Assembly (NCBI GenBank): GCA_012103255.1
Contig: WLXD01000003.1
Span: 141,984 to 205,983 of the forward strand
DNA: 64,000 nucleotides
Reading direction: 5' to 3'
Source of the DNA: Acidobacteriota bacterium
GTDB lineage: Bacteria > Acidobacteriota > UBA890 > WLXD01
Shown one piece after another: positions 8,109-37,270 of the stretch. Numbering within the stretch: the first letter of the stretch is position 1; every line of letters begins with the position of its first letter. The translations under genes were made by a program, and so were the position numbers. The notes under the pieces were generated by a model, which was not told the origin of the DNA, did not search any database, and was given only the letters and a program-made list of their open reading frames with translations.

Positions 8109-8137
8109 CGGTTCACCTTGAATGACTAATACTATCT

Positions 8138-8160
8138 AAAACTATCTTTTCAATAGTTTT
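8138..8160. promoter_or_regulatory. perfect palindrome AAAACTAT-N7-ATAGTTTT in AT-rich divergent intergenic region
   Basis: Read directly: aaaactat cttttca atagtttt. It is flanked by TAATGACT(A/G)AAT direct repeats at ~8120-8130 and 8170-8181, and sits in the only AT-rich stretch for kilobases. Confidence 0.45.
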
Positions 8161-8394
8161 CAGCACTCATAATGACTGAATCCATGCACCGTCAACAAGC
8201 CTTAGATGCCCGTTGCGCCACAAAGTTGGAAGCGCGCCGAACAACGAGGAGACGCCTAGGATCCATGGCTCGTACTGCCGGCGGGCGCCGAACCCTGGGT
8301 GTAGAATCGATGTCAGCAGCCGCTCTTCCAGCTCCGAGCGCTGCTCTCGCGCCGCGATCGGCGCCCTTCGCCTAGCACCTCGACTGACGCATTC

Positions 8395-9555: not shown

Positions 9556-9561
9556 GCAGGA

Positions 9562-10635: not shown

Positions 10636-10643
10636 CGCGGTGC

Positions 10644-11831: not shown

Positions 11832-12044
11832 CGAGTAAATCTCTCAGGCTTTGGGTTATTGCCCCAAATGAAAAGGGGGCACTCGGACCACGGCTTGTCA
11901 GACGCGGAAATCCTCCGCGGTTTGCTCCCATGGTGGTGCAGTGAGTTTTTCGGACTCGCCCCTTAATCCAGACACTGATGATTCTAGAGAGCCTGTCCGG
12001 TTGTTGCAATGCACGGAACGTTGCGAACGTGCTCCAGCTCGGGT

Positions 12045-14990: not shown

Positions 14991-15033
14991 GATCGAATAC
15001 TGGCTCGCGTGGGTCTAGGCGTAATCGATCATG
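14988..15033. promoter_or_regulatory. 9-bp inverted repeat CATGATCGA…TCGATCATG overlapping the M16 peptidase start codon
   Basis: Read directly: ccatgatcga (14988-14997) and tcgatcatg (15025-15033), separated by 27 nt. The left arm includes the CAT complement of the ATG. Confidence 0.35.
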
Positions 15034-15192
15034 TGCGCGACGACGCCGGAGCGCTTGAATTTTCGACTGACAACGTCACGCCCGGTGCGTTAACTTTCAA
15101 TTGGCTGTTTGTAGCAACGGTGGTACCCGTGAATCGGGGCGAGATCCGGTCACCATCGCGCGCTTTCCAGATCAATCTAACCGGATACCACT

Positions 15193-16509: not shown

Positions 16510-16571
16510 CCACTCCGTGAAAGATCGCGGCGGGTCTGCGATGATTCGGCCTCCTATTCCCCATAGGCCGG

Positions 16572-21242: not shown

Positions 21243-23936
21243 CTACTCCGATCGCAGACTCACCGCCGGATCTAGAGCAAGGGCCCGGCGGGCCGGAATC
21301 ACTGTTGCGACAAGAGCCACCAGGAGCAGCAACGTGGGGACGCCGAGATAGACCAACGGCTCGCCGGCGTTCACACCTTCGAGCACCGCGGCCAGAAGCC
21401 GACCGATCGGGATCGCCACCGCCAGACCGATGGTCGCTCCGATCGCCGTGAGCGCCATACCGCGCCGCACGGCCAGGGCCAGAACCTGGCGTGGGGCTGC
21501 GCCGAGCGCCACCCGAACCCCGAACTCGCGCGTTCGCCGTGCGACACGGTACGCAAGCAGGCCATAGAGGCCGACCGCCGCCAGGCCCAGAGCAGCCGCC
21601 CCGAAAGCCGCCATCAGGCTCGTCGGCAACCAGACGATCACGAGCGAGTCGCGAACGATCTTCTCCAACGTGCGCACCGAGTCGACCGGGATCGCCGCAT
21701 CGACACGCCACACCGCGTCCCGGACTTCCGTGGCCATCTCGGCCGCGGGCCTGCCATCAGACTTGATCGCCAGCAGCATGCGCGCACGAGCATCGGTCTG
21801 TTCGTACGGCACGAAGAACGCGGGGCCCGGCGGATCCAGCATGGTCAGGTGCTGGAAATTTCGAATCACGCCAACGATGGTGATCCAGTCTTCGTCGTCC
21901 CCGCCGCGGATGCGTTGCCCAATCGCATCGCCTTCACGCAGGTGACGCAGCAACGCCTCGTTCACAACGGCGACTCGCGCGGAATCAGCCCGGTCCGCAT
22001 CCTCGAACAGCCGGCCGCCCACGACGGTCGCGCCCATGGCGGGCAGGTAGCCCGCTGTCACCGCGCGGTAACCCGCTGACGGCGTGCGCTCCAGGTCCTC
22101 GACGCCCTCGACCTGGAGGTCGCTGACGGGATTGCTGAACGACAAGGGCAAGATCGACGTGGCACCAACCCCGTCTACCCCCCGAACGGACTCGATCTCC
22201 CGAATCGCTTCCCGATAGAAGTTCTGCCGAGACTCCACGCCTTCGTAGCGCGGGCCGTTGGGAGCTACCTCGATGGTTAGCACGTCGGCGGCCTCGAATC
22301 CCGGGTCCTTCGCCACCAGACCGGTGAACCCTTTCACCATCAGACCAGACCCGATCAACAGCACCACTGACACGGCAACCTCGGCGACCAGGAGTAGGCT
22401 GCGCAGCCGACCTCGGCCCCCTTCGATGTGACCGGATTCACCGCTGGCTCGCATCACCGTGCCGAGATCCGCACGTGCGGCGCGGAACGCGGGAACCAGG
22501 CCGAACACGATCCCCGAGGTCGCCGCGACCAGAAAGGTGACCAACAAGACCCGCATGTCCGGACCCGCCTGCGTCGCCGCGGACGAAGTCTCGAGAACGG
22601 CCTCGGGCAGACTGGCGACCAGCAGCCTGCCGGAGAAGCTAGCGGCGATGTGCCCGACGACGACGCCGGCCAGCGACACGATGACGCACTCCACCAGCAG
22701 CTGTCGGACGATCCGCGCTCGCGACGCTCCCAGCGACTTACGGATCGCGATCTCACCCTGGCGTGTGGCACCACGGGCCAGGAGAAGATTTGCCACGTTC
22801 GCGCAGCAGATCAGCAAGACGAATCCGACGGTTACCAGCAACACGGCCAGCGCGGGCGCCATGATCTCGCTCATCTGCTCCCGCAGCAGCACCGCCCGGG
22901 CGCTCACTCCTTCGTTGGTCCCCGGGTAGTCCTCTTCCAGCTGCGCCATGATGCTCGCCAATTCGGCACTGGCTGTGTCGATGTCCGTACCGTCGGCGAG
23001 GCGCCCGATGACGATCTTGTTCCGCTCCGATCGGGCGTTGACAATCTCCTCCGTCGCCCAGCGAGCCGGCCGCCACAGATCACCGCGGGCGACCAACTGC
23101 GGGTACTCGAACCCTTCGGGCATGACCCCCACTACGGTGTGTTCACGCTCGTTGAGGAGCATCGCCGTGCCGACGATCTCGGGGTCCGCGCCGAGCCGTT
23201 GCCACAGTCGCCAGCTCAGGACGACGACATCCGGGGCTCCTACTTCGCCATCTGCCGAACCGAAACCGCGACCGAGAACCGGGGCCGAGAGCAGCACCCC
23301 AAAGGTGTTGGTCGTGACCGTATAGCCGGTAAGGGCGAGCGGCTCCTGGTCTCCGTTGAGATTGACGGCCCAGCTGTGCGAGATCGCGATGTCCTCGAAC
23401 GACTCGCTGCGCTCCCGCAAGTCCACCCAGTCCGCCGCCGACGTCGCGCCAACACTGACTCCAACGTCCGGCCGGGTCGTCCAGATCATCGCCAGGCGAT
23501 CCCCCTCCCCGAAGGGCAGCTCCGCGAACATCAGCGCATGGGTCATACCGAAGATGGTCGCGTTGGCCGCCATTCCTACGGCGATCGTGATGATGGCGAC
23601 GGCCGCGAAACCTGGGCTGCGCATCAGATTGCGCACCGCATAGCGGATGTCCTGAACGGTGTCGGCGAACCAGCGACGACGGCTCCGCCGCTGCGGCCGG
23701 GGTGCTCCGCCCGAGGGCAGCGGTTCGGGCAACAGGCGGCGCTCCTCGAGTCCGTCGCGGAGCACCCGAGGAATTGTTCGCGACCAAAGCCTGGCGAGGC
23801 CGGTCAGCCCGTCACGACGCCACGTCGCGTTGTGCAACAGGCCGAAGTCGGCGAGAACCATCTCGCCGTAGCGCGCCCGGAACGTACGCGGGTAGGCGGT
23901 GAGTAGAGCCCTGTACAGCACCTGCGATCGACTCAA
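21243..23936 (-). CDS. FtsX-family ABC transporter permease (MacB-like, duplicated-permease 'ADOP' type)
   Basis: 897 aa with two FtsX/MacB_PCD-like halves and a conserved N-terminal cytoplasmic leader (MSRSQVLYRALLTAYPRTFRARYG…). Overlaps the upstream padR by 4 nt. Confidence 0.8.
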   Translation of the reverse strand: MSRSQVLYRALLTAYPRTFRARYGEMVLADFGLLHNATWRRDGLTGLARLWSRTIPRVLRDGLEERRLLPEPLPSGGAPRPQRRSRRRWFADTVQDIRYAVRNLMRSPGFAAVAIITIAVGMAANATIFGMTHALMFAELPFGEGDRLAMIWTTRPDVGVSVGATSAADWVDLRERSESFEDIAISHSWAVNLNGDQEPLALTGYTVTTNTFGVLLSAPVLGRGFGSADGEVGAPDVVVLSWRLWQRLGADPEIVGTAMLLNEREHTVVGVMPEGFEYPQLVARGDLWRPARWATEEIVNARSERNKIVIGRLADGTDIDTASAELASIMAQLEEDYPGTNEGVSARAVLLREQMSEIMAPALAVLLVTVGFVLLICCANVANLLLARGATRQGEIAIRKSLGASRARIVRQLLVECVIVSLAGVVVGHIAASFSGRLLVASLPEAVLETSSAATQAGPDMRVLLVTFLVAATSGIVFGLVPAFRAARADLGTVMRASGESGHIEGGRGRLRSLLLVAEVAVSVVLLIGSGLMVKGFTGLVAKDPGFEAADVLTIEVAPNGPRYEGVESRQNFYREAIREIESVRGVDGVGATSILPLSFSNPVSDLQVEGVEDLERTPSAGYRAVTAGYLPAMGATVVGGRLFEDADRADSARVAVVNEALLRHLREGDAIGQRIRGGDDEDWITIVGVIRNFQHLTMLDPPGPAFFVPYEQTDARARMLLAIKSDGRPAAEMATEVRDAVWRVDAAIPVDSVRTLEKIVRDSLVIVWLPTSLMAAFGAAALGLAAVGLYGLLAYRVARRTREFGVRVALGAAPRQVLALAVRRGMALTAIGATIGLAVAIPIGRLLAAVLEGVNAGEPLVYLGVPTLLLLVALVATVIPARRALALDPAVSLRSE

Positions 23937-24283
23937 CTGGATCCTCCGATCGGCAACACGCTTTTGTTGCGCGCCACGCTCACAAGGCGCTCCAATCGCT
24001 CGGCCTCGCGCGCGACAACATCGACTCCCGCTTCGGTCAACTCATACTGCCGCCGTCGGGTCTCGTCCGGCTCGTGCTCGGTCACGAAGCCCTCGCGGGC
24101 CAGACGTCGGAGCGACCGGTACAGATTGGCGGGGTCCATATGCACGGCCCCCTCGCTCTCCTCGGTGATGCTCTGCAGGATCCGGTAGCCATGACCGCGC
24201 CCTTCAACGAGCGCAAGCAGGATCAGAAAGTCACGGGCCGCAAGCGGCAACGCCGGCACAACATCACGATTGAGTGCTTCCAT
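23933..24283 (-). CDS. PadR-family transcriptional regulator
   Basis: …LILLALVEGRGHGYRILQSITEESEGAVHMDPANLYRSLRRLAREGFV… is the PadR winged-helix signature. Confidence 0.8.
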   Translation of the reverse strand: MEALNRDVVPALPLAARDFLILLALVEGRGHGYRILQSITEESEGAVHMDPANLYRSLRRLAREGFVTEHEPDETRRRQYELTEAGVDVVAREAERLERLVSVARNKSVLPIGGSS

Positions 24284-24371: not shown

Positions 24372-25464
24372 TCACGCGATCTCAGTGTTTTCCGCACTAG
24401 GCTGCAGCCACCGTGATCCGGTCCGCACGAAGTACGTCAACCACATGACGATTCCAACGAACTTGGCGCCGTCTTCGAAGATGAACGGGTTCAGCCCGGG
24501 AATGCTCACGACGTCCAGACCCACGGACGTGATGAAGAATCCGAGGGCGATGGCAAGTAGTTGCCACTCCGTCGCACGGATGATTCGTCGGAACCGGGTC
24601 AGATAGGCCGCTATCGCGATCATGTAGGTGACGATCAGCACTTTCTCGGGAATTCCGAGGCGAGGGAGTTACGCGCTCGTGCCACAGAAAGGTGTCGTCG
24701 AGGGCAAGCACGGTCGTGAACACCGCCGAGGCCACCAAGAACCGCCGCACGGCCGGATTGGCGGTCCAGTTGATGCCCGCCACGAAGAAGCAGATCGCCG
24801 CCGCAGCGGCCCAAAGCAGGAGCCCGAGCTGCGATAGCGCGCCCGTCACGGGCGGCAGGCCAGCCACCTGCGTCACATCCCGAATCAAGACGTCGAACGG
24901 CACGCCCGCGACGAATCGCTGCTCCACAACAAAGCCTATTGGCACGGCGGCGGCAGCGAAGGCAAGAAGCATGACCCGCGCCAGCGGCATGCGGGCCGAC
25001 CGCTGGACGACGTGTTCCGGGCTTGCACCGATCCGGAGGCGTCCGCCCGCGGCTGCGGCGATCAACGCAAGCAGGGCGGCCAGCGCGAGACCCGCCGTCG
25101 TATGCCATACGGCATATTGCGACGTGACGATCACGAAGCCAAAGGTCGCCGCCACCGCCACCGCCAGCGGCAACGCGACAACGCGTGCGGGCACCCGCGC
25201 ATCGGCGCTGGTCCACAAGGCGACACCCAGCACAAGCAGCAACGCCCCTGACACGCGCGCAAATCCGATGCCGGCCCAAACAACCTCGACAGCGGGAGCC
25301 GGTTCAAGCGGCGGAACCGCCTGCCCGCCGATGACCTCGAATGCCGTGGGCCCCGCAAGCGCAACCCACAGCCCGAGCGCCACGGTCAACGCGGCGACGC
25401 TCCGCGCAAAGTACTGCCACATCGGCAGGAGGCGTGAGGAAGAAGCGTGGGTCTTCGGTGACAT
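24372..25464 (-). pseudogene. polytopic membrane protein gene interrupted by a frameshift (or sequencing error) near 24650-24680
   Basis: The 355-aa ORF (24397-25464) loses protein-like character after …LALDDTFLWHE. The hydrophobic continuation (…EKVLIVTYMIAIAAYLTRFRRII…WLTYFVRTGSRW…) lies in another frame (24372-24641). The two frames overlap around 24641-24676. Confidence 0.45.
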
Positions 25465-25580
25465 GCGTCAGGTCCAGGGCTTTGCCTGGCGACGACCTGG
25501 CGACGCCGGGCGCGAGCCCAGCATAGTTGAATGCCCGCCGGACCAACAGGCTCGCGCCGACGGGCTAAGATCGGAGCCGT

Positions 25581-25664
25581 CGCCGGAGTGGTGGAATGGC
25601 AGACACGCGGGATTCAAAATCCCGTGGGCTTTATGCCCGTGTGGGTTCGAGTCCCACCTCCGGT
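25581..25664 (+). tRNA. tRNA-Leu (anticodon CAA), class II with long variable arm
   Basis: Hand-folded cloverleaf: acceptor GCCGGAG/CTCCGGT, D-arm, anticodon stem CGGGA/TCCCG with loop TTCAAAA (anticodon CAA), 17-nt variable stem-loop GGGCTTTATGCCC, T-arm GTGGG-TTCGAGT-CCCAC, discriminator A. Confidence 0.85.
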
Positions 25665-25752
25665 ACTTATGCGATGAGCGGCATCGGAAAACGCGACGCT
25701 AGCGGTTTCTCCCACAGCAAGTTCCGCGCGACTTCGCCGAAGGAGAAACAGG

Positions 25753-26223
25753 ATGCCGAAACCCATCCGCTACTCACTTGTCTCGATGCTCGGTGTCGGC
25801 CTGGTGGCCACGTGGCAGGCATTCAATGTCGGAGTCGAGTCGGGTGCTGAGCAGGCGTTCCAGGAGAACTCAACTTCGGCCGCCGAGCCGGACTTTGTCG
25901 GTCATTGGGAGGGCTCGATCGCAGGGGTAATCACGCTCGTCTTTCACATCACGGAATCGGACGGGACGTACTACTCGACGCTCGATGTTCCGCAGCAGGA
26001 CCTGGCTGGACGGGTCATGGACAGCACCACGATCGATGGGACGAAGCTTCGCATCACGTTCGATCTGATAGGGGGCGTCTTCGCGGGCGAGATGCTGGAT
26101 GACGGCACGATAGCGGGGACCTGGCGCCAAGCGCATGGAGGCGACCCGTTTGCCCTGAATCTCCGGCAGCGGGGTAGCGAGTCGTTGGCGCCCGCCGAGG
26201 CGCCGGGCCGCGTCCCGGGCTAG
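25753..26223 (+). CDS. secreted hypothetical protein
   Basis: 156 aa with an N-terminal hydrophobic signal/anchor. No motif recognised. First gene after the tRNA. Confidence 0.5.
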   Translation: MPKPIRYSLVSMLGVGLVATWQAFNVGVESGAEQAFQENSTSAAEPDFVGHWEGSIAGVITLVFHITESDGTYYSTLDVPQQDLAGRVMDSTTIDGTKLRITFDLIGGVFAGEMLDDGTIAGTWRQAHGGDPFALNLRQRGSESLAPAEAPGRVPG

Positions 26224-26355
26224 AAGGGATCCCCCGCCTCGCCGCGGTGGTGGCTTGCACCACGGTGTCGCACGCTGACCACGAGCGCGACGACCTGGTC
26301 AGCGAACCGCTGCCTGCACCTCGCACGAGTAGAAAGCGCTCTCGTGGATACTCAA

Positions 26356-27264
26356 CTAGCCCACGAACCCGCCCCTGACGGCGCGCACGCCGTAGGCCCA
26401 GAAGCCCTCCAGGTCCGGCGGGAACCTACTGATTTCTCCGGCCCGCTGGCGCGAGCCGTGCGTCTTGTGCGTCTTGTACAGCAAGAACAGACCGAGATTC
26501 TTCATTGTCTGGTCGCGTTCTGTCGCCGCTTCCTTCTCTGCGACGGACTCGAGCACAGCAATCGCGAGATCCGGCGCTTCTCTCATCATCACAAGCGCGG
26601 CACCGTATCTCACTGCATTCTTGATCGACGGGACGTCGTGGTAGCTCGCCCTTAGCTCGTTGAGCTTGGGTTCGATTTGCTCCACCGATCGGGTCCACAT
26701 CGCGGCCCGCTGAGCTGGCGATGACCGGGGCGGCAGTACGTCCGTTTCCGATAGCGCCATCGTTATAGCGACGTGAACGTAGGTTTCAGGTGCCCAGAGG
26801 GTTTCTTCGGCTGAGTCACGGCTATGGCTAACGACCCCGCCGAACAGAAGGGCGATCAGCGCCGTGATGGCAGCAGCCCGCATCGAGGGAAGCGGCTTGT
26901 AGTGCGTCGGCGCGGACGCGGGCGTTGCCTCGGGCGTCGGCGCGTGAGGCGTGAACAGCACGCCACGGCCGTGCAAGGTGCGAAGGAAGACCGGGGCTGC
27001 AGCCGTCTCGCCAAGAGCGCGCCTCAGCAGATGGACGACTTCGCAGATCGACTGGTCGGCGACCGCGGTTGCCGGCCAGCACGCTCCGAGTAGCTCATCC
27101 TTCGTGATCGGGCGGTCCGGGTTCGCTAGCAAATAGCTCAACACGCGGGCGCATCGGGGGTCCAGGTCAACCCGACCATCAGCTCGATGAAGCGACCCCG
27201 TCAGCGCGTCGAACTCCATGTCTCCAACGCGTGATCGTAGAGCCTTGTCCGATCCGTTCTGCAT
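26356..27264 (-). CDS. CadC/ToxR-like membrane-bound transcriptional regulator (OmpR-type winged helix + TM + periplasmic helical/TPR-like domain)
   Basis: The N-terminus …LDPRCARVLSYLLANPDRPITKDELLGACWPATAVADQSICEVVHLLRRALGE… matches the Trans_reg_C winged helix. One TM helix (AAITALIALLFGGVV) is followed by a helical periplasmic region. Confidence 0.65.
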   Translation of the reverse strand: MQNGSDKALRSRVGDMEFDALTGSLHRADGRVDLDPRCARVLSYLLANPDRPITKDELLGACWPATAVADQSICEVVHLLRRALGETAAAPVFLRTLHGRGVLFTPHAPTPEATPASAPTHYKPLPSMRAAAITALIALLFGGVVSHSRDSAEETLWAPETYVHVAITMALSETDVLPPRSSPAQRAAMWTRSVEQIEPKLNELRASYHDVPSIKNAVRYGAALVMMREAPDLAIAVLESVAEKEAATERDQTMKNLGLFLLYKTHKTHGSRQRAGEISRFPPDLEGFWAYGVRAVRGGFVG

Positions 27265-27478
27265 GGCAACGGTTCTATCACACCAAGCGCGGAGCCTGCG
27301 GGAACCACGGGGGAGCCGCCAAAACTAAGAAACCACTAAGGACTTTCTAGCCCCGATCGCGCACGGTCCGTGCCACCAATCCATTACTACAGACGGGGTC
27401 GCGCAGAAGGGGTTCGCGTGCTCGACGGCACGCTCCAGTCCACCCGCCCCGTCAGGCAGCTATGCCGGAGGTTTTGCG

Positions 27479-27733
27479 ATGGCCGAAACGAGAATCGCCG
27501 ACCGAAACGACGACTATACGACCGTGGCAGATAGGGCCAACCGAGTGGGCTGTGACTGCTGTTGCACGGACGCCGTCGCCCGCGTCCTTTGCTGCTGGAT
27601 GCAGACCGATGAAGGCAGCCAGGGGAATCGCGACAACACGGCCGAGTTCGCGAGCCAGTTGATGGCGGCCCTTGGGTGCGATCCGCAAGCAGTATCGAAG
27701 AGTCGTCGCGCTGATGACTGCGACATCGACTAA
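27479..27733 (+). CDS. small acidic Cys-rich hypothetical protein (possible partner/antitoxin of downstream RelA/SpoT-domain gene)
   Basis: 84-aa ORF preceded by GGAGG 6 nt upstream. Its TAA stop lies within the RBS (GGAGG) of the next gene. Contains a CDCCC…CC cluster. The coding call is uncertain. Confidence 0.25.
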   Translation: MAETRIADRNDDYTTVADRANRVGCDCCCTDAVARVLCCWMQTDEGSQGNRDNTAEFASQLMAALGCDPQAVSKSRRADDCDID

Positions 27734-27745
27734 CGGAGGCACAGC

Positions 27746-28708
27746 ATGAGTCTCCCGTACCGGTTTCTGTTTGGCGCTTTCTTCGCAGTCTTGCCGGCGT
27801 CAGTTGGTCTTGGCCAGGAGACCGCGCAGGCACCGCAAACCGCGAGCGTTTCACAGGAGGTGCTCGCGCCGGTGACCGTCGCGCGTCGCCTGTCCTCAGC
27901 CAACACCATCAACTGCAAGCTAGGGGACTACGCGACGGCCGACTTCTTCGCCCTTCCTCCCGACGAGCAAGACCTGTTCCTGACCGAGTTCCGGGCTAAG
28001 TACGCGGCCACGCTGCGCGCGACGCGCGATGCGCTACGCGCCCTACTGCCCCGGCCCGTTTACATGGTGTCATTCCGCCTGAAGACGTCGGTGAGCATCA
28101 AGGAGAAGATCACCCGCAAGGGCTACAGCTGCTTCTCCCAGTTCTCCGACATCGTGGGCACACGAGTGATCGCTCCTGCGTACGCCTCGTTCGGGGCCAT
28201 CCAGCGAACGATCACCGACACCTTCGATGTCGCCAAGGCCGAGAACCTACTCGACGACAAGCCCGGCGGTGGCTATCGCGCCCTGCACTATGACGTGATA
28301 GTGCTGGGGCGCAAGGCCGAGATCCAGGTCATGACGCGCAGGATGGCCGCCTTCACGGAGAGTTCTCATCCACTCGCGTACAAGGGGCCGTACGCGGAGC
28401 CGAATGACCCGTCGAAGGACACTCCGGAAGCCAAGGCTGTCCGCGGGTATCTGAAGAAACTGGGCGATGCGATTCACGAACTGGATAGAGGCAACTCAGC
28501 TACTCTGCCCCCGATCCCCGCGACTCTCCCGGACGACGCCCAGGAGCGGCTCAACAAGACAATGGTTAAGCTTGTCTCGCTGAGTTCCATCGATCCAATC
28601 ACGCCGCTTACGTTCGCGGAGATCTTCGTCAACCCGGCGCTTGCTCTGCTTGAGTTCTACGCGCTAGACGAGTTCCTTCCCATCGCGCTGATCGAGCAGG
28701 AACAATAG
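27746..28708 (+). CDS. RelA/SpoT (RSH) nucleotidyltransferase-domain protein, toxSAS-like, with signal-peptide-like N-terminus
   Basis: …RLKTSVSIKEKITRKGY…DIVGTRVI…GGYRALHYDVIVLGRKAEIQVMTRRMAAFTESSHPLAYKG… matches the RelA_SpoT synthetase core (D-x-G-R-V, GY(R)xLH, EIQ(V/I)xT, YK). There is no HD hydrolase domain. N-terminus MSLPYRFLFGAFFAVLPASVGLGQE. GGAGG RBS 7 nt upstream. Confidence 0.75.
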   Translation: MSLPYRFLFGAFFAVLPASVGLGQETAQAPQTASVSQEVLAPVTVARRLSSANTINCKLGDYATADFFALPPDEQDLFLTEFRAKYAATLRATRDALRALLPRPVYMVSFRLKTSVSIKEKITRKGYSCFSQFSDIVGTRVIAPAYASFGAIQRTITDTFDVAKAENLLDDKPGGGYRALHYDVIVLGRKAEIQVMTRRMAAFTESSHPLAYKGPYAEPNDPSKDTPEAKAVRGYLKKLGDAIHELDRGNSATLPPIPATLPDDAQERLNKTMVKLVSLSSIDPITPLTFAEIFVNPALALLEFYALDEFLPIALIEQEQ

Positions 28709-28854
28709 CCGCAATTGCCAGGTTCCGCGGCGCACATGCAACCTATCTCGCCTGTGCGCGCGGCGAGAGCCCGAAACTTCCACAATCTCCTACACACTTC
28801 CACAAGTTGTGCAGAAAACTCTTTAAATATAGATATCTAAGAGTGCAGGCACAG

Positions 28855-28908
28855 GATTCAAAATCCCGTGGGCGCAAGCCCGTGTGGGTTCGAGTCCCAC
28901 CTCCGGTA
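28855..28908 (+). repeat. direct repeat = truncated 3' portion of tRNA-Leu(CAA) (attR-like), copy 1
   Basis: 54 nt identical to the tRNA from the anticodon loop to the discriminator, except the variable-arm loop (gcaa vs tttat). Confidence 0.85.
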
Positions 28909-29113
28909 CTAATATTTTCGACGACTTACCTCGTTGCCGAACAACGCTTGGACAACCGGAGCCTGGCGCGCCGCCGGATCGGACCCTGGTACGCAGAGGT
29001 CGGATCTCGTAGGGTCGTCTGCGACGCTTGTACGCGGCTTCACTGCTAGCCTGGCCGGTACCCCGTCAGCCCTCCGACAAGGGGCCGGCCGTCGGCGTTC
29101 GGCCGACCTGGAG

Positions 29114-29956
29114 ATGCGAAACATGGCGGACGACACCCCCCCGTCGATCGAGCAGATTCGCGAATGGCTGGCCCACGAGAGCATGTCTGGGTATGGCTTG
29201 ATGCGCCGCTGCACGTGGCCGGGAAGGAAGCCCGCCGTAGAGCTTCTCTACATCATCGACAGCACCGGGGGAGAACAAAGCCGGAAGCACCGAATGTCCC
29301 ACGACCACTATCGCTGGGTCACCCGGATGTTCTGGCGCTCTCGTCGCCTGTACGAGGCAATTCTCTTTCTTCTCGATGCCGCTCAGCCCGAAGAAGCGGC
29401 AATCCTGGCGCGCTCGTTGTTTGAGGACAGCATGCGTCTAATGGAGCTCGCTGAGGACGAAAACAAGCGCGACGCCCGGATCATCTGGTGGATGAACGAC
29501 TCAATTCAGCGAGCGTTCAACCTGCAGAGGGGGGATCCGGCATTTGAAGTCGAGGACAGACTCATACTTTCACGCCACGAGTTGGAGGGGCGGCGGGCGG
29601 GCCTGCAAAGGTACGCTGCGTACCACGGCGTGACCAAGTACGAGAGGTTCAGTTCGCCCAAGGACGCGGCTACCCGGTTTGATCGGAAGATGTCCTATTC
29701 CCTGTACATGTGGGCGCATCAAGCGACGCACGGGAACGACGCCGTTTGGGGAGTCGCAGCCGTGAAGCGGCCGGAAGGCGGCGAACTCCTGAATGCGAAG
29801 ACAGCGGATGTCCTGTGGCTCAAGATGGTGGCCAACTTTGCCATCCAGGCAGTGTTCGATGCCATGATCGCCGCCGCCTCAGTGCTTGGATGGGCAGTGC
29901 CAGAAGAAGCGTTCTCGAAACTCGACGAGTACCAGCAAGCTCGCGACGAGCAATAA
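29114..29956 (+). CDS. hypothetical protein (all-alpha, no recognised domain)
   Basis: 280-aa ORF; alternative ATG at 29123. No motif I can name. Confidence 0.5.
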   Translation: MRNMADDTPPSIEQIREWLAHESMSGYGLMRRCTWPGRKPAVELLYIIDSTGGEQSRKHRMSHDHYRWVTRMFWRSRRLYEAILFLLDAAQPEEAAILARSLFEDSMRLMELAEDENKRDARIIWWMNDSIQRAFNLQRGDPAFEVEDRLILSRHELEGRRAGLQRYAAYHGVTKYERFSSPKDAATRFDRKMSYSLYMWAHQATHGNDAVWGVAAVKRPEGGELLNAKTADVLWLKMVANFAIQAVFDAMIAAASVLGWAVPEEAFSKLDEYQQARDEQ

Positions 29957-30687
29957 CCGGTGCCCCGGCGGCCAGGAGGCGTGCCTGGACATCGCTTCTG
30001 CGAGCGGTCGTCGGGATCTCGGTCTCGTCGTCTAGTCAGCATCGCGCAACGTCTCTTCGAACTGCTGTACTTCCAGCCTTCGGAGCCGGTGCTTCGAGAC
30101 TCGTTGCGCCAACTGCGCCGCTGACCCAACGCCAGCCTCAATCTGGCTCGTTGGTGGCGAGTCGGAAACATAGGGGCGCCGTCGAGCCGTCTGTGCACTT
30201 GCCCTCGTTATCCCGGCGCTCTAGTTGCCGTGCCGTGCCAATCTTGAAGTAGTCGGCGTCGGCCGTGCGGCCGCGCCGGAGCCCAGGACCAGGGGCTGGC
30301 CCCACGGGCCCACCGCCGCATGCTCGACATCGCGAAGGGCTCTTTCGTGTACCGGATAGTGCGGCCGTCCACGCGTAGTGCGTCTTCGGCCTCCGATCCT
30401 TCTTCGTAGCGCGTGATCAAGATGGTATCCGCCCGGTCACCTATCAGCATGAACAGGGCAACTCTTGGGCCCCGCCACACCGCTCGAAGCCTCTCCGGTG
30501 TTCCGGCGGCGTGCGGTGCGCACATGGTGCCTGTAGTGGCCCGCGCAACTCTGGCTGCCATCGTCGGGCCAGCCGGCGGCTGTCCGCTGCCGCTCCGAAG
30601 CTGAACGGCTCGCGGGGTCCCAGACGCTCACCAGGGTGCAGCTCGCTCCCGCTGCCGTCGATCAGGACACTGCGGCCCGCCGGCAGA

Positions 30688-31275
30688 TCAGCGGTGTCCG
30701 TCCGCAGCGCCAGTGCCCGGCGTAGGGAGTACCGGTTCGTCGTCCATGACGTCGTTCTGGTTGAGCAACGGAACAATTAGCACGTCCCCGTTCGTAAAGA
30801 CCTTGGCGTCCTTTCTCGCCAACGTTGCTTTGTAGTGGTAATTGCCTACGCGTTGAACCTCGAAACTCGCACCGTCCTGCGTGCTTTCGTACTCAACGAA
30901 GTCCTTTCCGCCTTGGCTTCTCTTCCATTTGTCCTGCTCAAACTCGATCCATCTGTAGCGCATGATTCGCGCCCGCTGAGGCTCAGGTTTCGGTTCGGGC
31001 GGGTTCTCGAGATACTTGTGGCGCTCTGGCAAATGCACAGCGAATCCATCGACCCAGATACGCGCGTCGTTCACCTCGTACCACTCCGAACCGAGACCGG
31101 CACGAGGGTAGATCTGCAGGCGACTGTTCTGGTAGTCGCCTGCCCGCCAAGAGAAGGCGCGATCATACGGCCGACCCGGACCATTCTCGTCCCACCCCTT
31201 GAGGCTGCCGTCCTCTTTGTGGGTGCCCCACAGAACCACCTCTACGAATCTATGGCAGAACAAAGCCAGGTCCAT
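30688..31275 (-). CDS. hypothetical protein
   Basis: 195-aa ORF, divergent from the TIR gene. Charged and aromatic-rich (…WYEVNDARIWVDGFAVHL…). No recognised domain. Confidence 0.5.
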   Translation of the reverse strand: MDLALFCHRFVEVVLWGTHKEDGSLKGWDENGPGRPYDRAFSWRAGDYQNSRLQIYPRAGLGSEWYEVNDARIWVDGFAVHLPERHKYLENPPEPKPEPQRARIMRYRWIEFEQDKWKRSQGGKDFVEYESTQDGASFEVQRVGNYHYKATLARKDAKVFTNGDVLIVPLLNQNDVMDDEPVLPTPGTGAADGHR

Positions 31276-31544
31276 CTCGTCCCTCCATGGTCGTTTGAGC
31301 GAATGCAGCTAGAACCCGCGCCGGGTTCCCTTTCCGACAACTGCACAGGCGCGCCTATTCAAATTGGTCTCGTTTCGTCGCCAACTGCTCGAGACCGCTG
31401 CGCGTGGGAACGATCGTCGAGGGCTCCCGCTCCCCGCAGGGCATGTAGCGTTGACGTCAAAGTTCCCATATAGTTCCCTCATGGGAGTCGGGATGCGGAT
31501 CGTGGGAAATGGTGAAGTGTAGGAAGTGTTCGCAGGAGGCCGGT

Positions 31545-33137
31545 ATGAGAAGGGATAGGGGCGGGCTTGTGGTTGATCTAGCGGCAGAACTGGAAACCCT
31601 GATGAAGGCCGGAGGGGTGAAGGGCTACGTCAAGGCGAGCGAAGCGCCTATCCTCGGCGTCTGTGCGGAGCACTCTGGCCGCGATCAAGAGCCTCGGCAA
31701 GCGCTGGAGGCGCTCGTGCGATCCGCGATCGCGAGGATCGACGCCGGCCAGGACCGGGAGGCCCTGACTGAACTGTTCCTGGCACCCACGGGCGATCAGT
31801 CGCTGGCCGCACGCGGAGCGAAGGCGGCCGAACACTTTGACATCAGCTACGACGCGCTCCGCCGTCGGAACGATCAAGGCGTCCGGCGAATCGATTCGCT
31901 GTTGGAGCAGCTGGCGGCGAACGTCAACCGCGTCTGTCCGCTGGATGATCTTCTCGGTGACGCAGGGTATCGAGGGGCTTCGCTCGACCCGGGGCCCGGT
32001 GCAGTGAGTCGAGCGCAAGTCTTTCTGAGCTACTCGCACCACGATGATGCGCACGAAGGCGGCCTAGTTTCCTCGCTTCGAGACGCCCTGATCCGGGAGT
32101 TCCGTTTTCAGACCGGCCAGGACCTTCGCGTGCTCCATGACAAATCCGGGATTGAGTTCGGCGAGGACTGGCGGCGGAAGATCGAGGATTTGCTAAGCCA
32201 GACCAGCTTCCTACTCGTGATCCTTACGCCATCGTTTCTGACGAGCGAGCAGTGCCGGGCCGAGTTGGCGAGGTTTCTGCAGCATGAGCGGGCACGAGAC
32301 CGAGATGACCTCGTATTGCCGATCTACTACGCCCCTGTGGATGAGGACGCGGAGGACCACCTCGTAGCGGCATTGCTTGCGCGCCAGTACGTGGACTGGC
32401 GAGGGTTGCGGTTCCTGGACTTTGGTTCTCCCGAGATCAGGATGGCAGTTGCCAAGCTGGCGACGTCTGTCGCCGCTGCACTTGGACGCCGACCCGAGCC
32501 GGTCGAGACTCCGACAGACGACGTTTCCCCGACAGAACTCGGCACGGTTGAGCACTTCGCGAAGATGCAACTCGCGCTTCCTCGGGTCATCCGCGGCATC
32601 GCGACATTCACGAGTGAGCAAGAGGGCGTTGGGAACGAGTTTCGGCAGACTACGGAGCAGCTGAACAGGTTGAACCAGAGCGGCCAGGGAGCTGCTTCGC
32701 AGCTGTTCGTTGCGACTCAGCTGCGGTCGAGGCTGGAGCCCTACGCAGACCGGATGGAGGGGATCTCAGCCGGCGTCCGTGAGGACCTTGAGCTGATCAA
32801 AGGCGGCATCCACGCGATCGCGGCTGAACTTCCAGACTCTCAGGAGGCGGGGCTCGAGGAGACGACGCTCGGTATGCTCGACGCTATCCGCGAGTCGCTA
32901 GGTGCGATGCAGGATGCCGAGGACAGCGTCGAGGAGTTCGCCGACGTGGCCACAGGGCTAGGCCAGAAAACCTCGACGCTGAGGCCTGTGCTGAATCGAA
33001 TCGTGGCGTCCGCTCGCTTCGTCCGCACTTGCAAGGAGCGGTTCGCGCAATGGCTTGGCATTCTTGAACAAGCCCTGGACGACTGGCGGAGAAAGGCTGC
33101 GTCCGTTCCGCCGCCCGAGGACGAATCCCAGCGGTAG
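31545..33137 (+). CDS. TIR-domain protein with N-terminal helical (HTH-like) region and long C-terminal coiled-coil/helical domain
   Basis: …AQVFLSYSHHDDAH…GQDLRVLHDKSGIEFGEDWRRKIEDLLSQTSFLLVILTPSFLTSEQCRAELARFL…LVLPIYYAPVD… is the canonical TIR pattern, including the Glu in the …SEQCRAEL… block. AGGAGG RBS 5 nt upstream of ATG 31545; an in-frame upstream ATG exists at 31509. Confidence 0.8.
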   Translation: MRRDRGGLVVDLAAELETLMKAGGVKGYVKASEAPILGVCAEHSGRDQEPRQALEALVRSAIARIDAGQDREALTELFLAPTGDQSLAARGAKAAEHFDISYDALRRRNDQGVRRIDSLLEQLAANVNRVCPLDDLLGDAGYRGASLDPGPGAVSRAQVFLSYSHHDDAHEGGLVSSLRDALIREFRFQTGQDLRVLHDKSGIEFGEDWRRKIEDLLSQTSFLLVILTPSFLTSEQCRAELARFLQHERARDRDDLVLPIYYAPVDEDAEDHLVAALLARQYVDWRGLRFLDFGSPEIRMAVAKLATSVAAALGRRPEPVETPTDDVSPTELGTVEHFAKMQLALPRVIRGIATFTSEQEGVGNEFRQTTEQLNRLNQSGQGAASQLFVATQLRSRLEPYADRMEGISAGVREDLELIKGGIHAIAAELPDSQEAGLEETTLGMLDAIRESLGAMQDAEDSVEEFADVATGLGQKTSTLRPVLNRIVASARFVRTCKERFAQWLGILEQALDDWRRKAASVPPPEDESQR

Positions 33138-33598
33138 GCACGAGGGCCCGGGCGCGCTCCTGGCCAGCCCCGCGGATCACAGGTGCTTGAGACCCACGGT
33201 CTCAACAGTATTCCCCCCAATCGTCGGCCAAGATGTTGCTCGATTCCTGAACCAGGAATCGAATGGCGCCGGGGGCGCCGCAACACCTCGGCCCGACTCC
33301 GTGGTGATTGGTGGAGCCTCAGCGAAATCCCGCAGCCGTCTCTCCATCTCGGCAGGACGGAATTGACACGGAGTCGGGGTTGGTGCCCGACGATTGGGGG
33401 GAATCACAAACCTAAGGAACGCAACGACTTAGGTTTGTTCTTGAGCTTCCGGTAGGTATTCGTTTCCTGAAACGAATAGGCAGGTGGAGATCTCGACCGT
33501 GCAGCCGGCGAGAACCCGAAACTTCCACAATCTCTTGCGCACTTTCGCAGTGCGGAGATTTTTCTTCTTTATTTATAAGTATTTAGATCAGGCATCAT

Positions 33599-33655
33599 CG
33601 GATTCAAAATCCCGTGGGCTTTATGCCCGTGTGGGTTCGAGTCCCACCTCCGGTA
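33599..33655 (+). repeat. direct repeat = truncated 3' portion of tRNA-Leu(CAA) (attR-like), copy 2
   Basis: 57 nt identical to the tRNA 3' part (cggattcaaaatccc…cctccggta), including the variable loop. Confidence 0.85.
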
Positions 33656-33730
33656 TTTTGGAGTCGAAGCGTCGCAAGGCGGTACCAGGGGACGACGGAG
33701 GGCAACTCGGTGTCGTGGGGAATCAGCTTT

Positions 33731-34171
33731 CTAGTCGAGCACGTTCGCCCGAGACGGGCCCGACACGAAGACCAGGCTTCCCGCCACGCCGCTCAGAAAC
33801 AGCGCTGAGGTCAAGTAGAACAGCCCTTCGATCGATTCGAGTGCGTCGCTGAGTGTCAGTCCGGCGCCGACGCTCATCGCCGACGCGACCCCGATGAGCA
33901 CCACGAACAGAGTCGTGGCGAGCGCGGTGATGGCCAGAGAGAATCTCGCGGCTGTGCCGAGTTCCGTCTTCAACGCCAAGCTCACCAGTCGCAGACCTCC
34001 GCCGAACAGAAGCGCGAACAACAGGATGCTGATGTGCTCGAATGGCGTTCCCTTCAGGAACCCGCTCAAGAACATCAGGACGAAGAGCACGATCAGCCCC
34101 CAGACCACCGCGCGGATTCGTCTGCGTTCGTTGTCGCGGCTAGGCCCTTTCTTCTGGTTCGCGCCCATCAT
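33731..34171 (-). CDS. small hypothetical membrane protein (4 TM helices)
   Basis: 146-aa hydrophobic ORF (MMGANQKK…). The ORF finder's 460-aa extension is spurious. Confidence 0.4.
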   Translation of the reverse strand: MMGANQKKGPSRDNERRRIRAVVWGLIVLFVLMFLSGFLKGTPFEHISILLFALLFGGGLRLVSLALKTELGTAARFSLAITALATTLFVVLIGVASAMSVGAGLTLSDALESIEGLFYLTSALFLSGVAGSLVFVSGPSRANVLD

Positions 34172-34390
34172 CAAGCCTCCAGGACGTGCCTGCCGGTCGC
34201 CGGCACGATCGTCAGGCGTTCCCATCGAGTAACGGTTGACGACGTCAACATTACATTTCGATGTTGTCGGCGTCAACATATGCACTCCGACCTTCCGCGC
34301 CTTCGGTGCGCGGTTCCGCAACTGGCGAGCCACGACGATGCCCCCGCGGGTGCCTGGACACTGCCTGGGCTCAGGTTCGAAAATAGTGCG

Positions 34391-34954
34391 ATGGACGACG
34401 CACGCGTGAGGGAACTGATGCGGTCGGCGTGGGCCAAGCGCCGGTCTTCCTTCGATGCCACCCCTACGGATTGTCGGTCCCTGCTCGCCGCTGCGAAGCA
34501 GGAGTTGACCGAGGCGTCCGAACTGTCTCGGTCCACGGGCGGCGCGACGTATGCGCAGGCGATCCACTTGCTCGCGAACGTCGAGGTCGACCTCGACGAG
34601 CCGGGTCGTGCCCGACGGCTGTGGGAGGAGGCAATCGCAATACTCCGAACCACCGACGACGTTCTGGAGCTGGCCCATAAGCTGCGGCACCTCGGAGACC
34701 TGCACCATCGCGCCGAGCGGCTGGCGGCGGCGGCGGCTTGCTACGACGAGTCGCTGCTGATCTATCGAGAGCACACGGGGCCGGGCAGCCTCGACTTTGC
34801 CAACGCCGTCAGCCGCGCAGCCGAGCTCCAGGAGCGACTCGGAGAACGGGCGGAGGCGGCTCGGTTGTGGCGCGAGACCCGCGACCTGTACGCCTCGGTG
34901 AACCTGCCGGCCGGCGTAGAGCAGGCCGAGCGCCGTTTGCAGCGGCTGCGCTAG
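34391..34954 (+). CDS. TPR-like repeat protein
   Basis: 188 aa. Helical repeats with alternating A/L-rich pairs (…AQAIHLLANVEVDL…, …AAACYDESLLIYRE…, …AEAARLWRETRDLY…). Confidence 0.45.
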   Translation: MDDARVRELMRSAWAKRRSSFDATPTDCRSLLAAAKQELTEASELSRSTGGATYAQAIHLLANVEVDLDEPGRARRLWEEAIAILRTTDDVLELAHKLRHLGDLHHRAERLAAAAACYDESLLIYREHTGPGSLDFANAVSRAAELQERLGERAEAARLWRETRDLYASVNLPAGVEQAERRLQRLR

Positions 34955-34970
34955 CGCGATCGTGCCCCCA

Positions 34971-34993
34971 TGGGTTCGAGTCCCACCTCCGGT
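34971..34993 (+). repeat. direct repeat = 23-nt 3' end of tRNA-Leu(CAA) (T-loop to discriminator), copy 3
   Basis: gggttcgagtcccacctccggta is identical to 25642-25664. It lies 16 nt after the TPR gene stop. Confidence 0.75.
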
Positions 34994-35111
34994 AGCTAGA
35001 ACATTCGCTCGCTGATTCCGGCGCCCCCTGTCGGCAGCATCGTCGTCTGCAACGTGTAGCATCACGGATTCCGAAACTGCGCAGCACGAAGCGCTAAACC
35101 AGGGAGTCCGC

Positions 35112-35957
35112 ATGAAAACCCGCTCGACCGCACTCTGGCTTACCGTGGGCGCTACCGCCCTGACGCTCGCGTGCGCTCCTGCCGCAGAAACCGAAGATCC
35201 TGCGCCGGAGACCGCCGCCCAAGAAGAGGCGCCCGAGTCGCCGCCGCATTGGACCTACGAGGGACAAACGGGACCGGCCGCCTGGGGCGGCCTGAGCGCG
35301 GAGTTCTCCGCGTGCGCCGAGGGCATGCAGCAGTCGCCGATCGATATCACCGGCGCCCTCGCGGAAACACTCCCGGAGTTGCGTGCCCAGTTTGGTGAAG
35401 TCGCCCTGCGGATCGTTCACGCGGAACACGTCGCCGATGCGATCAACAACGGTCACACGATCCAGGTGAACTACACCGAGGGCGACATGCTGAGCGTGGA
35501 CGACACCGATTACGAACTGGTGCAGTACCACTTCCACAGCCCGAGCGAACACACGGTAGAAGGCGCGCACTTCCCCATGGAGATGCACTTCGTGCATGCG
35601 GCGGCCGACGGCGCACTCGCCGTGATCGGCGTGTTCATCGAGGAGGGCGAACACAACGACGCCTTCGATCCGATCTGGAACAACCTGCCGCAGGAACAGG
35701 GCGTGGAGAATCACATCGGCGAGGTAACCGTCGACGTCGACCAACTGCTGCCCGCGAACGCAACCAGCTATCGCTACGCCGGCTCGCTCACGACGCCTCC
35801 CTGCTCGGAAGGCGTTGCCTGGATCGTGATGACCGAACCCATCCAGCTGTCCGGGGAGCAGATCGGGGCGTTTACGGCCCTGATCGAGGGGAACAACCGC
35901 CCGGTGCAGCCGCTGAACGGCCGGCCGATCGTCACCGACCAGGTCGAGAATTCCTGA
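35112..35957 (+). CDS. alpha-class carbonic anhydrase, secreted
   Basis: …HWTYEGQTGPAAWGGL…QSPIDI…, …QYHFHSPSEHTVEGAHFPMEMHFVH…, and …GSLTTPPCSEGVAWIV… are alpha-CA hallmark blocks (zinc-ligand His residues). Signal peptide present. Confidence 0.9.
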   Translation: MKTRSTALWLTVGATALTLACAPAAETEDPAPETAAQEEAPESPPHWTYEGQTGPAAWGGLSAEFSACAEGMQQSPIDITGALAETLPELRAQFGEVALRIVHAEHVADAINNGHTIQVNYTEGDMLSVDDTDYELVQYHFHSPSEHTVEGAHFPMEMHFVHAAADGALAVIGVFIEEGEHNDAFDPIWNNLPQEQGVENHIGEVTVDVDQLLPANATSYRYAGSLTTPPCSEGVAWIVMTEPIQLSGEQIGAFTALIEGNNRPVQPLNGRPIVTDQVENS

Positions 35958-35977: not shown

Positions 35978-37270
35978 ATGTCTCTCCATGCTCTACGGAC
36001 TCGTGAATCCATAGGCCCAGCCAATCGCGCTGCCGCACTCACTCTCGTTCTCGCCGTGCTGCTCTTGCCCGCCACAGCGGTCTCGGGGCAGGAGCAGGAG
36101 ACGGCCGCAACCTCGAACGACGAGGCTTCCGACGCCGGCGGCGCTGAGGGAACCTCGGAGGCGACAGGCGAACCCTCCGGCTCGAAGGGGATTCTTGCGG
36201 AGCCGATCCAGGTCGGGGATGACCTCAGGTTCCAGTTTGGCGGCTTTGTGAAAACCGACCTGATGCAAGATCTCGATCCGATCGGTAATGCCTATCAGTT
36301 CAAGGTCAACTCGATCCCGATCGAAGGCACGCCCGAGTCGCTGGCAGGCGGACGCACCACGTTCTCGGCGCGCCAGACACGACTGACCGTCGACATGCGG
36401 ACCGCCGAGTCGGCTGGGGGCGTGCGCGCATACGTCGAAACTGACTTCTTCGGCGACGGCAACTCGCTCCGGATCCGGCACGCGTTCGGTGAGTGGAAAG
36501 GGCTGATGGCGGGCCAGAACTGGAGCACATTCCAGGACATCGAGACCCGACCCGCCACCCTTGACTACGAAGGCCCCGACAGCGAGGTCTTCGTACGTCA
36601 GGTCATGGTGCGATACACCGGGCGTCCCTCAGAAGAACTGGAGTGGTCTGTCGCCCTCGAGGACCCAGACAGCCAGGTCACGGTGGGGTCCGACGTTGTC
36701 GGCAGCGGGCGCAGTCAGATACCGGACTTTGCGGGCCGGGCGAAGTTCAAGGGCAGCTGGGGACAGTTCCAGGCGGCCGGCCTATTGCGACAAATTCGGT
36801 TCGTCAGCGACGACGGCCTGGTGAACGAGACGACGGGCGGCTACGGCATCAACGTGGCGGCGAAGCTCAACCTCGGCTCTAGCGACGCGTTGATGGGACA
36901 CTTTGCGGTTGGTTCAGGCATCGGGCGCTACATCGAAGTCTTCAACGGAACTGGCACCGATGCCACCCTCACGCCAGACGGAAAGCTCGAGGCAATGAGC
37001 GCGTACGGGTTCGTGGCCGGTTTCACCCACCATTGGGACAGCCAGTTGCAATCGACCCTGAGCGGCGGCCTCGCTCACGTCGGCAATGAAGCGAGTCAGC
37101 CGGACGATGCGATCCAGGAAGCGCGATCTGTTCACCTCAACCTCGTCTACGCGCCGATTCCGCTGGTCAACATCGGCGGTGAGGTGATGTGGGGCGAGCG
37201 CGTGAACAAGAACGGCGACAAGGGCAGCGCTGTCCGACTGCAGTTCCAGGTGACTTACAAGTTCCGCTAG
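35978..37270 (+). CDS. outer-membrane porin-like protein (DcaP-like)
   Basis: Signal peptide, an acidic/Ser-rich N-terminal extension, then beta-strand-rich sequence ending …QFQVTYKFR. Confidence 0.5.
   Translation: MSLHALRTRESIGPANRAAALTLVLAVLLLPATAVSGQEQETAATSNDEASDAGGAEGTSEATGEPSGSKGILAEPIQVGDDLRFQFGGFVKTDLMQDLDPIGNAYQFKVNSIPIEGTPESLAGGRTTFSARQTRLTVDMRTAESAGGVRAYVETDFFGDGNSLRIRHAFGEWKGLMAGQNWSTFQDIETRPATLDYEGPDSEVFVRQVMVRYTGRPSEELEWSVALEDPDSQVTVGSDVVGSGRSQIPDFAGRAKFKGSWGQFQAAGLLRQIRFVSDDGLVNETTGGYGINVAAKLNLGSSDALMGHFAVGSGIGRYIEVFNGTGTDATLTPDGKLEAMSAYGFVAGFTHHWDSQLQSTLSGGLAHVGNEASQPDDAIQEARSVHLNLVYAPIPLVNIGGEVMWGERVNKNGDKGSAVRLQFQVTYKFR

Follow-up and report, generated by a model that had tools for sequence, protein, structure and literature searches.

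A 64-kb stretch of DNA (hereafter the window) from the metagenome-assembled genome of an uncultured Acidobacteria bacterium contains an intact tRNA-Leu(CAA) gene, behind which parts of the gene's 3´ end recur three times on the same strand. These copies divide the region between the tRNA and a carbonic anhydrase gene into three short islets, A, B and C. In E. coli, tRNA-Leu(CAA) is leuX, the attB site of phage P4. We consider it probable that the locus represents a tandem array of three element remnants, similar to cis-mobilizable elements (CIMEs), which came to lie at the tRNA 3´ end through at least three insertions, for which tyrosine integrases of two kinds would be responsible. The process itself is known and no new mechanism is revealed; the locus is a tidy example of it, a readable record of accessory genes piling up behind a tRNA in a poorly sampled phylum. 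The action of two integrase specificities on one tRNA, a foreign tRNA allele preserved as a fossil and stranded single-gene modules (TIR, RelA/SpoT-like, DUF5677) can all be read here from sequence alone. The locus further yields candidate stand-alone defence or stress genes, together with a 110-nt arm sequence that may serve as a probe for parent elements in Acidobacteria.

Copies of the tRNA 3´ half and two classes of attachment site

ARAGORN detected one tRNA in the whole window, tRNA-Leu(CAA) at 25582-25666 on the plus strand. The Rfam model RF00005 matches 25582-25665 (56.4 bits), and the sequence folds into a class II cloverleaf with long variable arm. An Rfam search of known RNA families found the tRNA alone, and scans for promoters and terminators gave no signal above shuffle level. 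The repeated segment corresponds to the 3´-most 56 nt of the gene (25610-25665). Within it, the 24-mer TGGGTTCGAGTCCCACCTCCGGTA has exactly four exact occurrences, at 25642, 28885, 33632 and 34971, all on the plus strand and within 9.4 kb of the cognate tRNA, while shuffled sequence gave 0 matches and none is expected by chance. Neither a repeat finder nor the 24-mer search revealed additional tRNA-tail copies elsewhere in the window. A preliminary description of this DNA had reported an intact tRNA with three exact, same-orientation copies of its 3´ end, taken for the att-like scars that site-specific integration leaves at the 3´ end of a tRNA gene. The four copies are indeed there and their interpretation as scars holds. 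Their coordinates agree within 1 nt, whereas the lengths are 55, 56 and 24 nt and not 54, 57 and 23 nt.

Exactness applies to two of the three partial copies. Copy 3 (33600-33655, plus strand, 56 nt) is identical to the resident tRNA in 56 of 56 positions, from GGATTC of the 5´ anticodon stem through the discriminator A. Copy 4 (34971-34994, plus strand, 24 nt) comprises the T stem-loop together with the 3´ acceptor strand and is likewise exact (24/24; 29/32 when the match is extended in the 5´ direction). Copy 2 (28854-28908, plus strand, 55 nt), which begins in the anticodon stem and runs on through the 3´ end, represents another allele: its variable loop reads GGGCGCAAGCCC (GCAAG) as against GGGCTTTATGCCC in the tRNA, which makes it 1 nt shorter and is the sole difference between the two.

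The copies do not begin at the same place. For copies 2 and 3 the first letters are GGA, in the 5´ anticodon stem, and for copy 4 they are TGGG, in the 5´ T stem. Judged by these boundaries, att sites of two classes are combined in the array, two of them anticodon-centred and one of the T-stem type, and it is not a series of three alike insertions. Existence of two sublocations implies that at least two integrase specificities acted on this tRNA. Both are classical places for tyrosine integrases to act in tRNA genes, and both are represented in the Islander tally of tDNA islands, with 2083 anticodon-centred and 1836 T-stem sites (PMC4383910). The intact tRNA would play the role of attL for the proximal islet A (25667-28853), which is bounded distally by copy 2. 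Islet B spans 28909-33599 and islet C 33656-34970. The measured sizes of 3.19, 4.69 and 1.32 kb bear out the earlier estimates of ~3.2, ~4.7 and ~1.3 kb.

Islets A and B have one further feature in common. Immediately upstream of copies 2 and 3 lie homologous right-end arms, at 28745-28853 and 33490-33599 respectively (both on the plus strand), which align over 60 nt at 82% identity (E=1e-10), or over ~110 nt when indels are counted. An exact 20-mer, CCCGAAACTTCCACAATCTC, and a 7-bp hairpin are conserved in both. Arm A contains two ACTTCCACAA repeats 20 nt apart, arm B one such repeat and one degenerate version, and the AT-rich spacer of the arms is conspicuous against the 64% GC of the genome. 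Beyond the arm, blastn and tblastx found no other homology among the islets. By this arm, the only homology between A and B, both islets appear to stem from one attP family carrying unrelated cargo.

The origin of copy 2 can be traced further. The metagenomic contig Ga0316204_10087291 from JGI bears an intact tRNA-Leu(CAA) at 914-997 whose 3´ 57 nt are the same as copy 2, GCAAG loop included. This match identifies the variant seen in copy 2 as an allele that lives on as a tRNA in another lineage, not as a product of random decay. Because the allele corresponds to a real tRNA elsewhere, and local duplication would not yield it, copy 2 was apparently carried by an incoming attP. On the JGI contig a sulfatase gene lies directly behind the tRNA, with no island there.

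Proposed succession of insertions and competing explanations

The layout suggests a certain order of events. An element with T-loop crossover would have inserted first, giving rise to islet C and displacing the original 24-nt tRNA tail to 34971-34994. Two related elements with anticodon-loop crossover would have followed, each restoring the tRNA with its own 3´ half and pushing the previous half to the distal end, behind its own ~110-nt arm. Copy 3 would then be the earlier 3´ half of the host, copy 2 would have entered with islet B out of a lineage bearing the other allele, and the present tRNA 3´ half would have arrived with islet A. Alternatively, B may have inserted into the attR of A; the sequence fits both possibilities. 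The integrase and any genes for excision or transfer are now absent, whether through loss, as we suppose, or because they were never present, and the remaining att-bounded cargo would be unable to move alone.

Absence of recombinases, already noted in the preliminary description, was confirmed by comparing a six-frame translation of 25600-35100 with Pfam (E<=0.1). No integrase, excisionase or transposase was found in any frame (no Phage_integrase, recombinase, rve or Xis domains); the only matches were RelA_SpoT, DUF5677, TPR, TIR, Trans_reg_C and a noise-level cytochrome b. Searches of the array with PHROGs, NCBIfam and PADLOC likewise gave no integrase, excisionase, transposase, relaxase or phage gene. 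No recombinase occurs among predicted genes of the remaining window, which are ordinary chromosomal ones (peptidases, amidohydrolases, an ECF sigma/anti-sigma pair, PadR-MacB pairs). A cryptic recombinase hidden among the DUF5677 protein and the 195-aa orphan protein of islet B is unlikely, the predicted all-helical and all-beta content of these proteins being unlike recombinase catalytic folds.

Two other kinds of element were considered and rejected. An integron cassette array does not fit, as the window contains no integrase, the repeats are tRNA 3´ halves and the islets hold several genes on both strands. For a prophage or phage satellite (P4-like, or a phage-inducible chromosomal island), PHROGs gave just weak matches to families of unknown function, and there were no structural, replication or regulatory Pfam domains.

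Base composition supports a foreign origin to a limited degree. Mean GC content of the array is 62.4% (islet A 62.3%, islet B 61.9%, islet C 65.0%, the last like the flanks), compared with 64.5-64.8% in the flanks, where the lowest window of equal size has 62.7%. Genes of islet B show mildly atypical codon usage with lower codon adaptation (z -1.7 to -2.2). A departure from the flanks, which the preliminary description had proposed to look for, is seen in the GC content of the array as a whole and, mildly, in the codon usage of islet B. It does not extend to the codon usage of islets A and C. By this measure the donors are compositionally similar to the host, or there was time enough for amelioration.

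Several observations weigh against an array of decayed insertions. Not even a fragment of an integrase pseudogene is detectable, though none of the att cores has a single mismatch (56/56 and 24/24 with the resident tRNA, 57/57 with the other allele); slow decay would be expected to leave some debris. The left ends of islets A and B have no common arm: no ACTTCCACAA copies occur there and shared 8-mers are at chance level. The GC shift amounts to only 2 points, and codon usage in islets A and C is indistinguishable from that of core genes. Homologue searches with the flanking proteins yielded no empty or differently occupied site in a relative, and the foreignness of the islets is deduced from att architecture and the GC shift. 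Finally, we infer the integrase classes from the sublocations only.

Some of these difficulties would vanish if the islets were still mobile, as att-bounded cassettes free of integrase, whose excision and insertion would be the work of a tyrosine integrase acting in trans from another place in the genome or from a visiting element, in the manner of CIMEs or, loosely, of integron cassettes. The conserved 110-nt arm would in that case be the module recognized by the integrase, and selection would have preserved it. We regard this as unlikely, though worth stating in its specific form. A and B would then belong to a family of Acidobacteria cassettes, each made of cargo, the ~110-nt arm with its hairpin, ACTTCCACAA repeats and AT-rich spacer, and a half-copy of tRNA-Leu(CAA), and shuttled in trans; the existence of such a family seems to us similarly doubtful. 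It would account for the perfect att cores, for the conserved arm beside unrelated cargo (the exact 20-nt block persists in arms that are otherwise 82% identical) and for the complete absence of recombinase debris. The compactness of the islets (1.3-4.7 kb) also agrees with it, and mobilization of CIMEs by accretion with an integrative and conjugative element (ICE) has experimental precedent in the work listed as references 79-83 in PMC5704250. Against it stand the lack of a left-end arm common to A and B, of an excisionase in the islets and of a cognate integrase in the window. Nor was the arm motif found in the other collections searched: the 20-mer CCCGAAACTTCCACAATCTC had no match in viral contigs, the combination of arm and anticodon had none in JGI metagenome contigs, and the arm gave no blastn match among plasmids or phages. 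A pattern for the anticodon-to-T-arm half-copy also had no match in viral contigs. A single gene arrangement is reported for the long contigs; junctions of an empty site or of a circle did not turn up, though no direct search for them was made. If the cassettes were mobilized in trans after all, the tRNA gene would be a stacking site for single-gene defence or stress modules, and the idea of CIMEs would extend to tRNA-targeting elements of environmental bacteria.

With a metagenome-assembled genome, the tandem order itself has to be questioned. Alternative occupants of one tRNA site in different strains, or an excised circle of A and B, might have been threaded serially by the assembler, as repeats of 31-56 nt tangle the assembly graph. 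Logan contigs, built with k=31, do end at the repeats. One ends at 25639, the islet A contig covers 25638-28880 (3243 nt), the islet B contig 28881-33629 (4749 nt), and the next one starts at 33628, inside copy 3. Since the contigs stop there, the repeats are evidently real in the reads; the tandem order is given by longer assemblies. The sole truly ambiguous repeat is the 56 nt common to the tRNA and copy 3, which permits a path from the tRNA through islet C to carbonic anhydrase plus a circle of A and B. The other junctions leave little freedom. Copy 4 shares 24 nt, which is below k and makes the junction from islet C to carbonic anhydrase unambiguous, and the unique variable loop of copy 2 makes the junction from A to B nearly unique. 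Even the 56-nt repeat could probably be crossed by a single short read. Moreover, the ENA assembly is colinear with the window over the entire array, as is the NCBI assembly of the same sample, and the same gene neighbourhood recurs in 10-12 further places, most contigs with these proteins being longer than 200 kb. An assembly artefact is therefore, in our opinion, quite improbable.

It might also be argued that the repeats have nothing to do with integration and arose by chance, as a dispersed repeat family or as tRNA pseudogenes by local duplication. Fragments of tRNA genes are reportedly sometimes mis-annotated or of other origin, which leaves such an explanation as a formal possibility only. 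The absence of matches in shuffled sequence and the confinement of all four copies to one strand close to their cognate tRNA speak against it, as do copy boundaries that fall at the anticodon stem and at the T stem, flanking sequences unrelated apart from the arm, and a copy 2 allele found as a real tRNA in another organism. As far as sequence can decide, this explanation is effectively refuted.

Relation to known tRNA-associated elements

CIMEs are elements that have lost their integration genes and kept attL and attR, and what lies in tandem with integrated elements is said to consist of "generally decayed elements" (PMC5704250). Type examples, as quoted there from Pavlovic 2004 and Bellanger 2011, are the elements of Streptococcus thermophilus related to ICESt1 and ICESt3, known for accretion. 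The array resembles CIMEs in the absence of integration and transfer genes, in being bounded, as it seems, by attL and attR, in its tandem arrangement at a conserved gene's 3´ end and in att sequences shared between neighbours. Core repeats are intact on both sides of each islet; a conserved arm accompanies them on the right side of A and of B alone. Unlike in these known cases, all three members of the array are devoid of a recombinase and there is no partner of the ICE or IME (integrative and mobilizable element) type; the target is a tRNA and the host belongs to uncultured Acidobacteria. The array also shows no conjugation, relaxase or oriT remnants, and only its right-hand arm is conserved.

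Islands in tDNAs catalogued by Islander and TIGER of the Williams group (PMC4383910, PMC7192596), some of them at tRNA-Leu(CAA), show the same regenerated tRNA with a displaced direct 3´ fragment, several islands per tDNA, and crossover at the anticodon or in the T stem, both of which are seen in the array. Islander demands an integrase gene for each island, whereas the array has none. Among 3919 islands, Islander lists 4 arrays of at least three islands (PMC4383910), a number that covers only members which keep an integrase and so does not measure the rarity of decayed arrays. The view expressed in the preliminary description, that an att array without recombinases is uncommon, does not stand up to the literature, which includes CIMEs, decayed tandem partners (PMC5704250) and partial tRNAs as marks of former integration (bioRxiv 10.1101/2020.12.28.424599). 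The latter come from the tycheposons of Prochlorococcus, where new elements at an island tRNA push the older ones inward and partial tRNAs mark older, degenerated integrations (bioRxiv 10.1101/2020.12.28.424599). Serial pushing and partial-tRNA marks are common to tycheposons and the array, and tycheposon cargo is adaptive or defensive. Tycheposon remnants, in contrast to the array, keep "fragmented integrases", and active tycheposons have a tyrosine recombinase and replication modules.

An apparently intact analogue of the anticodon-type layout is provided by the provirus IMGVR_UViG_3300045970_000684, which lies between a tRNA-Leu(CAA) and a copy starting at the anticodon stem. Its 386-aa open reading frame (ORF), ending about 50 nt from the tRNA copy, has an integrase-like C-terminus that is not confirmed by Pfam; this ORF beside attR is a probable tyrosine integrase. 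The provirus differs from the array in having kept a recombinase, in its tRNA sequence and in the absence of homology to the arm.

Islet cargo and chromosomal surroundings

The cargo is probably accessory and in part related to defence or stress, as far as domain content can tell. Pfam agrees with the earlier assignment of RelA/SpoT, CadC-like and TIR domains. The additional characterization as defence and toxin cargo is not sustained, as we obtained only weak profile matches to PADLOC candidate families. No complete named defence system was found in the islets by PADLOC, and links to defence stay weak, at profile level.

Islet A starts with a gene for a 156-aa protein with hydrophobic N-terminus and no family match (25753-26223, plus strand). 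It is followed by the gene for a membrane-anchored CadC/HilA/ToxR-type regulator of 287 aa (26356-27219, minus strand; PF00486 Trans_reg_C, E=2.6e-10) with an N-terminal winged-helix Trans_reg_C domain and no receiver domain, for which NCBIfam HilA/CadC matches are weak. An unannotated 84-aa ORF without family match (27479-27733, plus strand) ends 13 nt upstream of the gene for a 320-aa RelA/SpoT-domain protein (27746-28708, plus strand; PF04607, E=4e-12). This protein, by its domain a RelA/SpoT-like nucleotidyltransferase, also matches the PADLOC candidate family PDC-S33 (E=2.6e-10), and it is very distant from small alarmone synthetases of solved structure (PDB 2be3 and 6fgk at E~0.006-0.009). 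Measured against the features of toxSAS modules, the RelA_SpoT domain is present but distant, and the neighbouring 84-aa ORF belongs to no family. The N-terminus of the RelA/SpoT protein (MSLPYRFLFGAFFAVLPASVGLG...) resembles a signal peptide or membrane anchor, which is atypical for alarmone synthetases and toxSAS toxins.

Islet B encodes a 277-aa DUF5677 protein (29123-29956, plus strand; PF18928, E=7e-10), a 195-aa orphan protein (30688-31275, minus strand) without any match in Pfam, NCBIfam, PHROGs or PADLOC, and a 530-aa TIR-domain protein (31545-33137, plus strand). Single-sequence AlphaFold2 (AF2) models are all-helical for the DUF5677 protein (pLDDT 47) and all-beta for the orphan (pLDDT 48), and their quality is too low to support a fold search. 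DUF5677 is listed among domains enriched near defence-marking serine recombinases, with no evidence there of a defence role (PMC12632615). The 730-nt gap at 29957-30687 has no called gene and a GC content of 66-68%. Within it, downstream of the 195-aa gene, lies a 117-aa ORF (30208-30561, minus strand) with no family match, which could represent either a small gene or what is left of a pseudogene.

In the TIR protein, the domain occupies about residues 135-265 (Pfam TIR_2, E=3.8e-14 on a longer 542-aa ORF). PADLOC matches to PDC-S66 and ThsB-like profiles are weak, and with no match to a ThsA-type or other partner in the islets, Thoeris and other named TIR systems were dismissed. The protein belongs to a small and well-conserved family and has 14 near-full-length homologues (87-99% query coverage) with 44-50% identity; none of the family was found in viral contigs. 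An alignment of 13 sequences of the family has a mean column identity of 64%. Invariant residues also occur in the N-terminal (~1-130) and C-terminal (~300-530) parts of the protein, which have no family assignment. Many members of the family come from short contigs; contigs were examined for three homologues, and in two of these cases a tRNA gene is close by. Between the TIR gene and arm B, the non-coding segment 33137-33490 carries a 21-nt inverted repeat with 95% complementarity (33210-33230 and 33384-33404) as well as two perfect hairpins, at about 33405-33440 and 33458-33485, and its GC content falls to 54%.

On contig Ga0597029_0000224, a TIR homologue with 45% identity is situated in a 7.6-kb island beside tRNA-Leu(GAG), together with a large serine recombinase, HTH_17 and PIN proteins. 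This island is followed by a recombinase-less islet of 1.7 kb, bounded by further tRNA-tail copies of 17-19 nt. It is unlike the array in that the serine recombinase abuts the tRNA, the tRNA sequence is another one and homology to the arm is absent. On another contig, a TIR homologue is the first gene after tRNA-Pro(CGG). These two parallels point to tRNA-targeting elements as the vehicles of such genes, and to distal islets without recombinase as a commonplace. Only the TIR gene is common to islet B and the homologue loci, hence it seems to travel alone.

Within the region 7800-17260 of Ga0597029_0000224, the tRNA-tail copies lie at 9527 and 7842. The serine recombinase (Resolvase, Recombinase and Zn_ribbon domains; 15493-17148) overlaps the 3´ end of tRNA-Leu(GAG) (17129-17213, minus strand) by about 20 nt. 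Its position at a tRNA may merit attention in view of the statement that no recombinases other than those of the tyrosine type are known to target tDNAs (PMC4383910).

Islet C contains a predicted membrane protein of 145 aa (33731-34168, minus strand) and a TPR protein of 178 aa (34418-34954, plus strand; Pfam TPR_10/TPR_12).

To the right of the array, Pfam identifies an alpha-carbonic anhydrase (35112-35957, plus strand) and a DcaP-type porin (35978-37270, plus strand). Both genes are adjacent in other genomes too, where the carbonic anhydrases are 65-66% identical to this one and no tRNA-Leu is in the neighbourhood; the nearest carbonic anhydrase homologue found has 75% identity. With its order kept in this way, the pair behaves, by sequence comparison, as part of the core, in line with the preliminary description, which had named the carbonic anhydrase as the first conserved core gene after the array. 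An apparent TPR gene upstream of carbonic anhydrase in one of the other loci proved unrelated.

The left flank is a less useful guide. A scan of genome contigs with its MacB-like protein returned paralogues only (33-36% identity), and membership in a paralogous family makes this protein a poor anchor for orthologous loci. The window contains two genes for MacB_PCD/FtsX permeases of ~895 aa, at 21243-24283 and 57357-60038, the first of them paired with a PadR regulator. Between the former and the tRNA is a membrane-protein gene (24372-25464, minus strand), for whose product a search of 5.8 billion proteins gave no homologue. It seems to be frameshifted: its 355-aa ORF consists of ~265 aa of plausible transmembrane sequence followed by a nonsense-like tail, and an 89-aa ORF in another frame continues the gene. 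The NCBI annotation instead calls a low-complexity ORF of 328 aa on the plus strand, and the corresponding plus-strand ORF, 24692-25702, overruns the tRNA.

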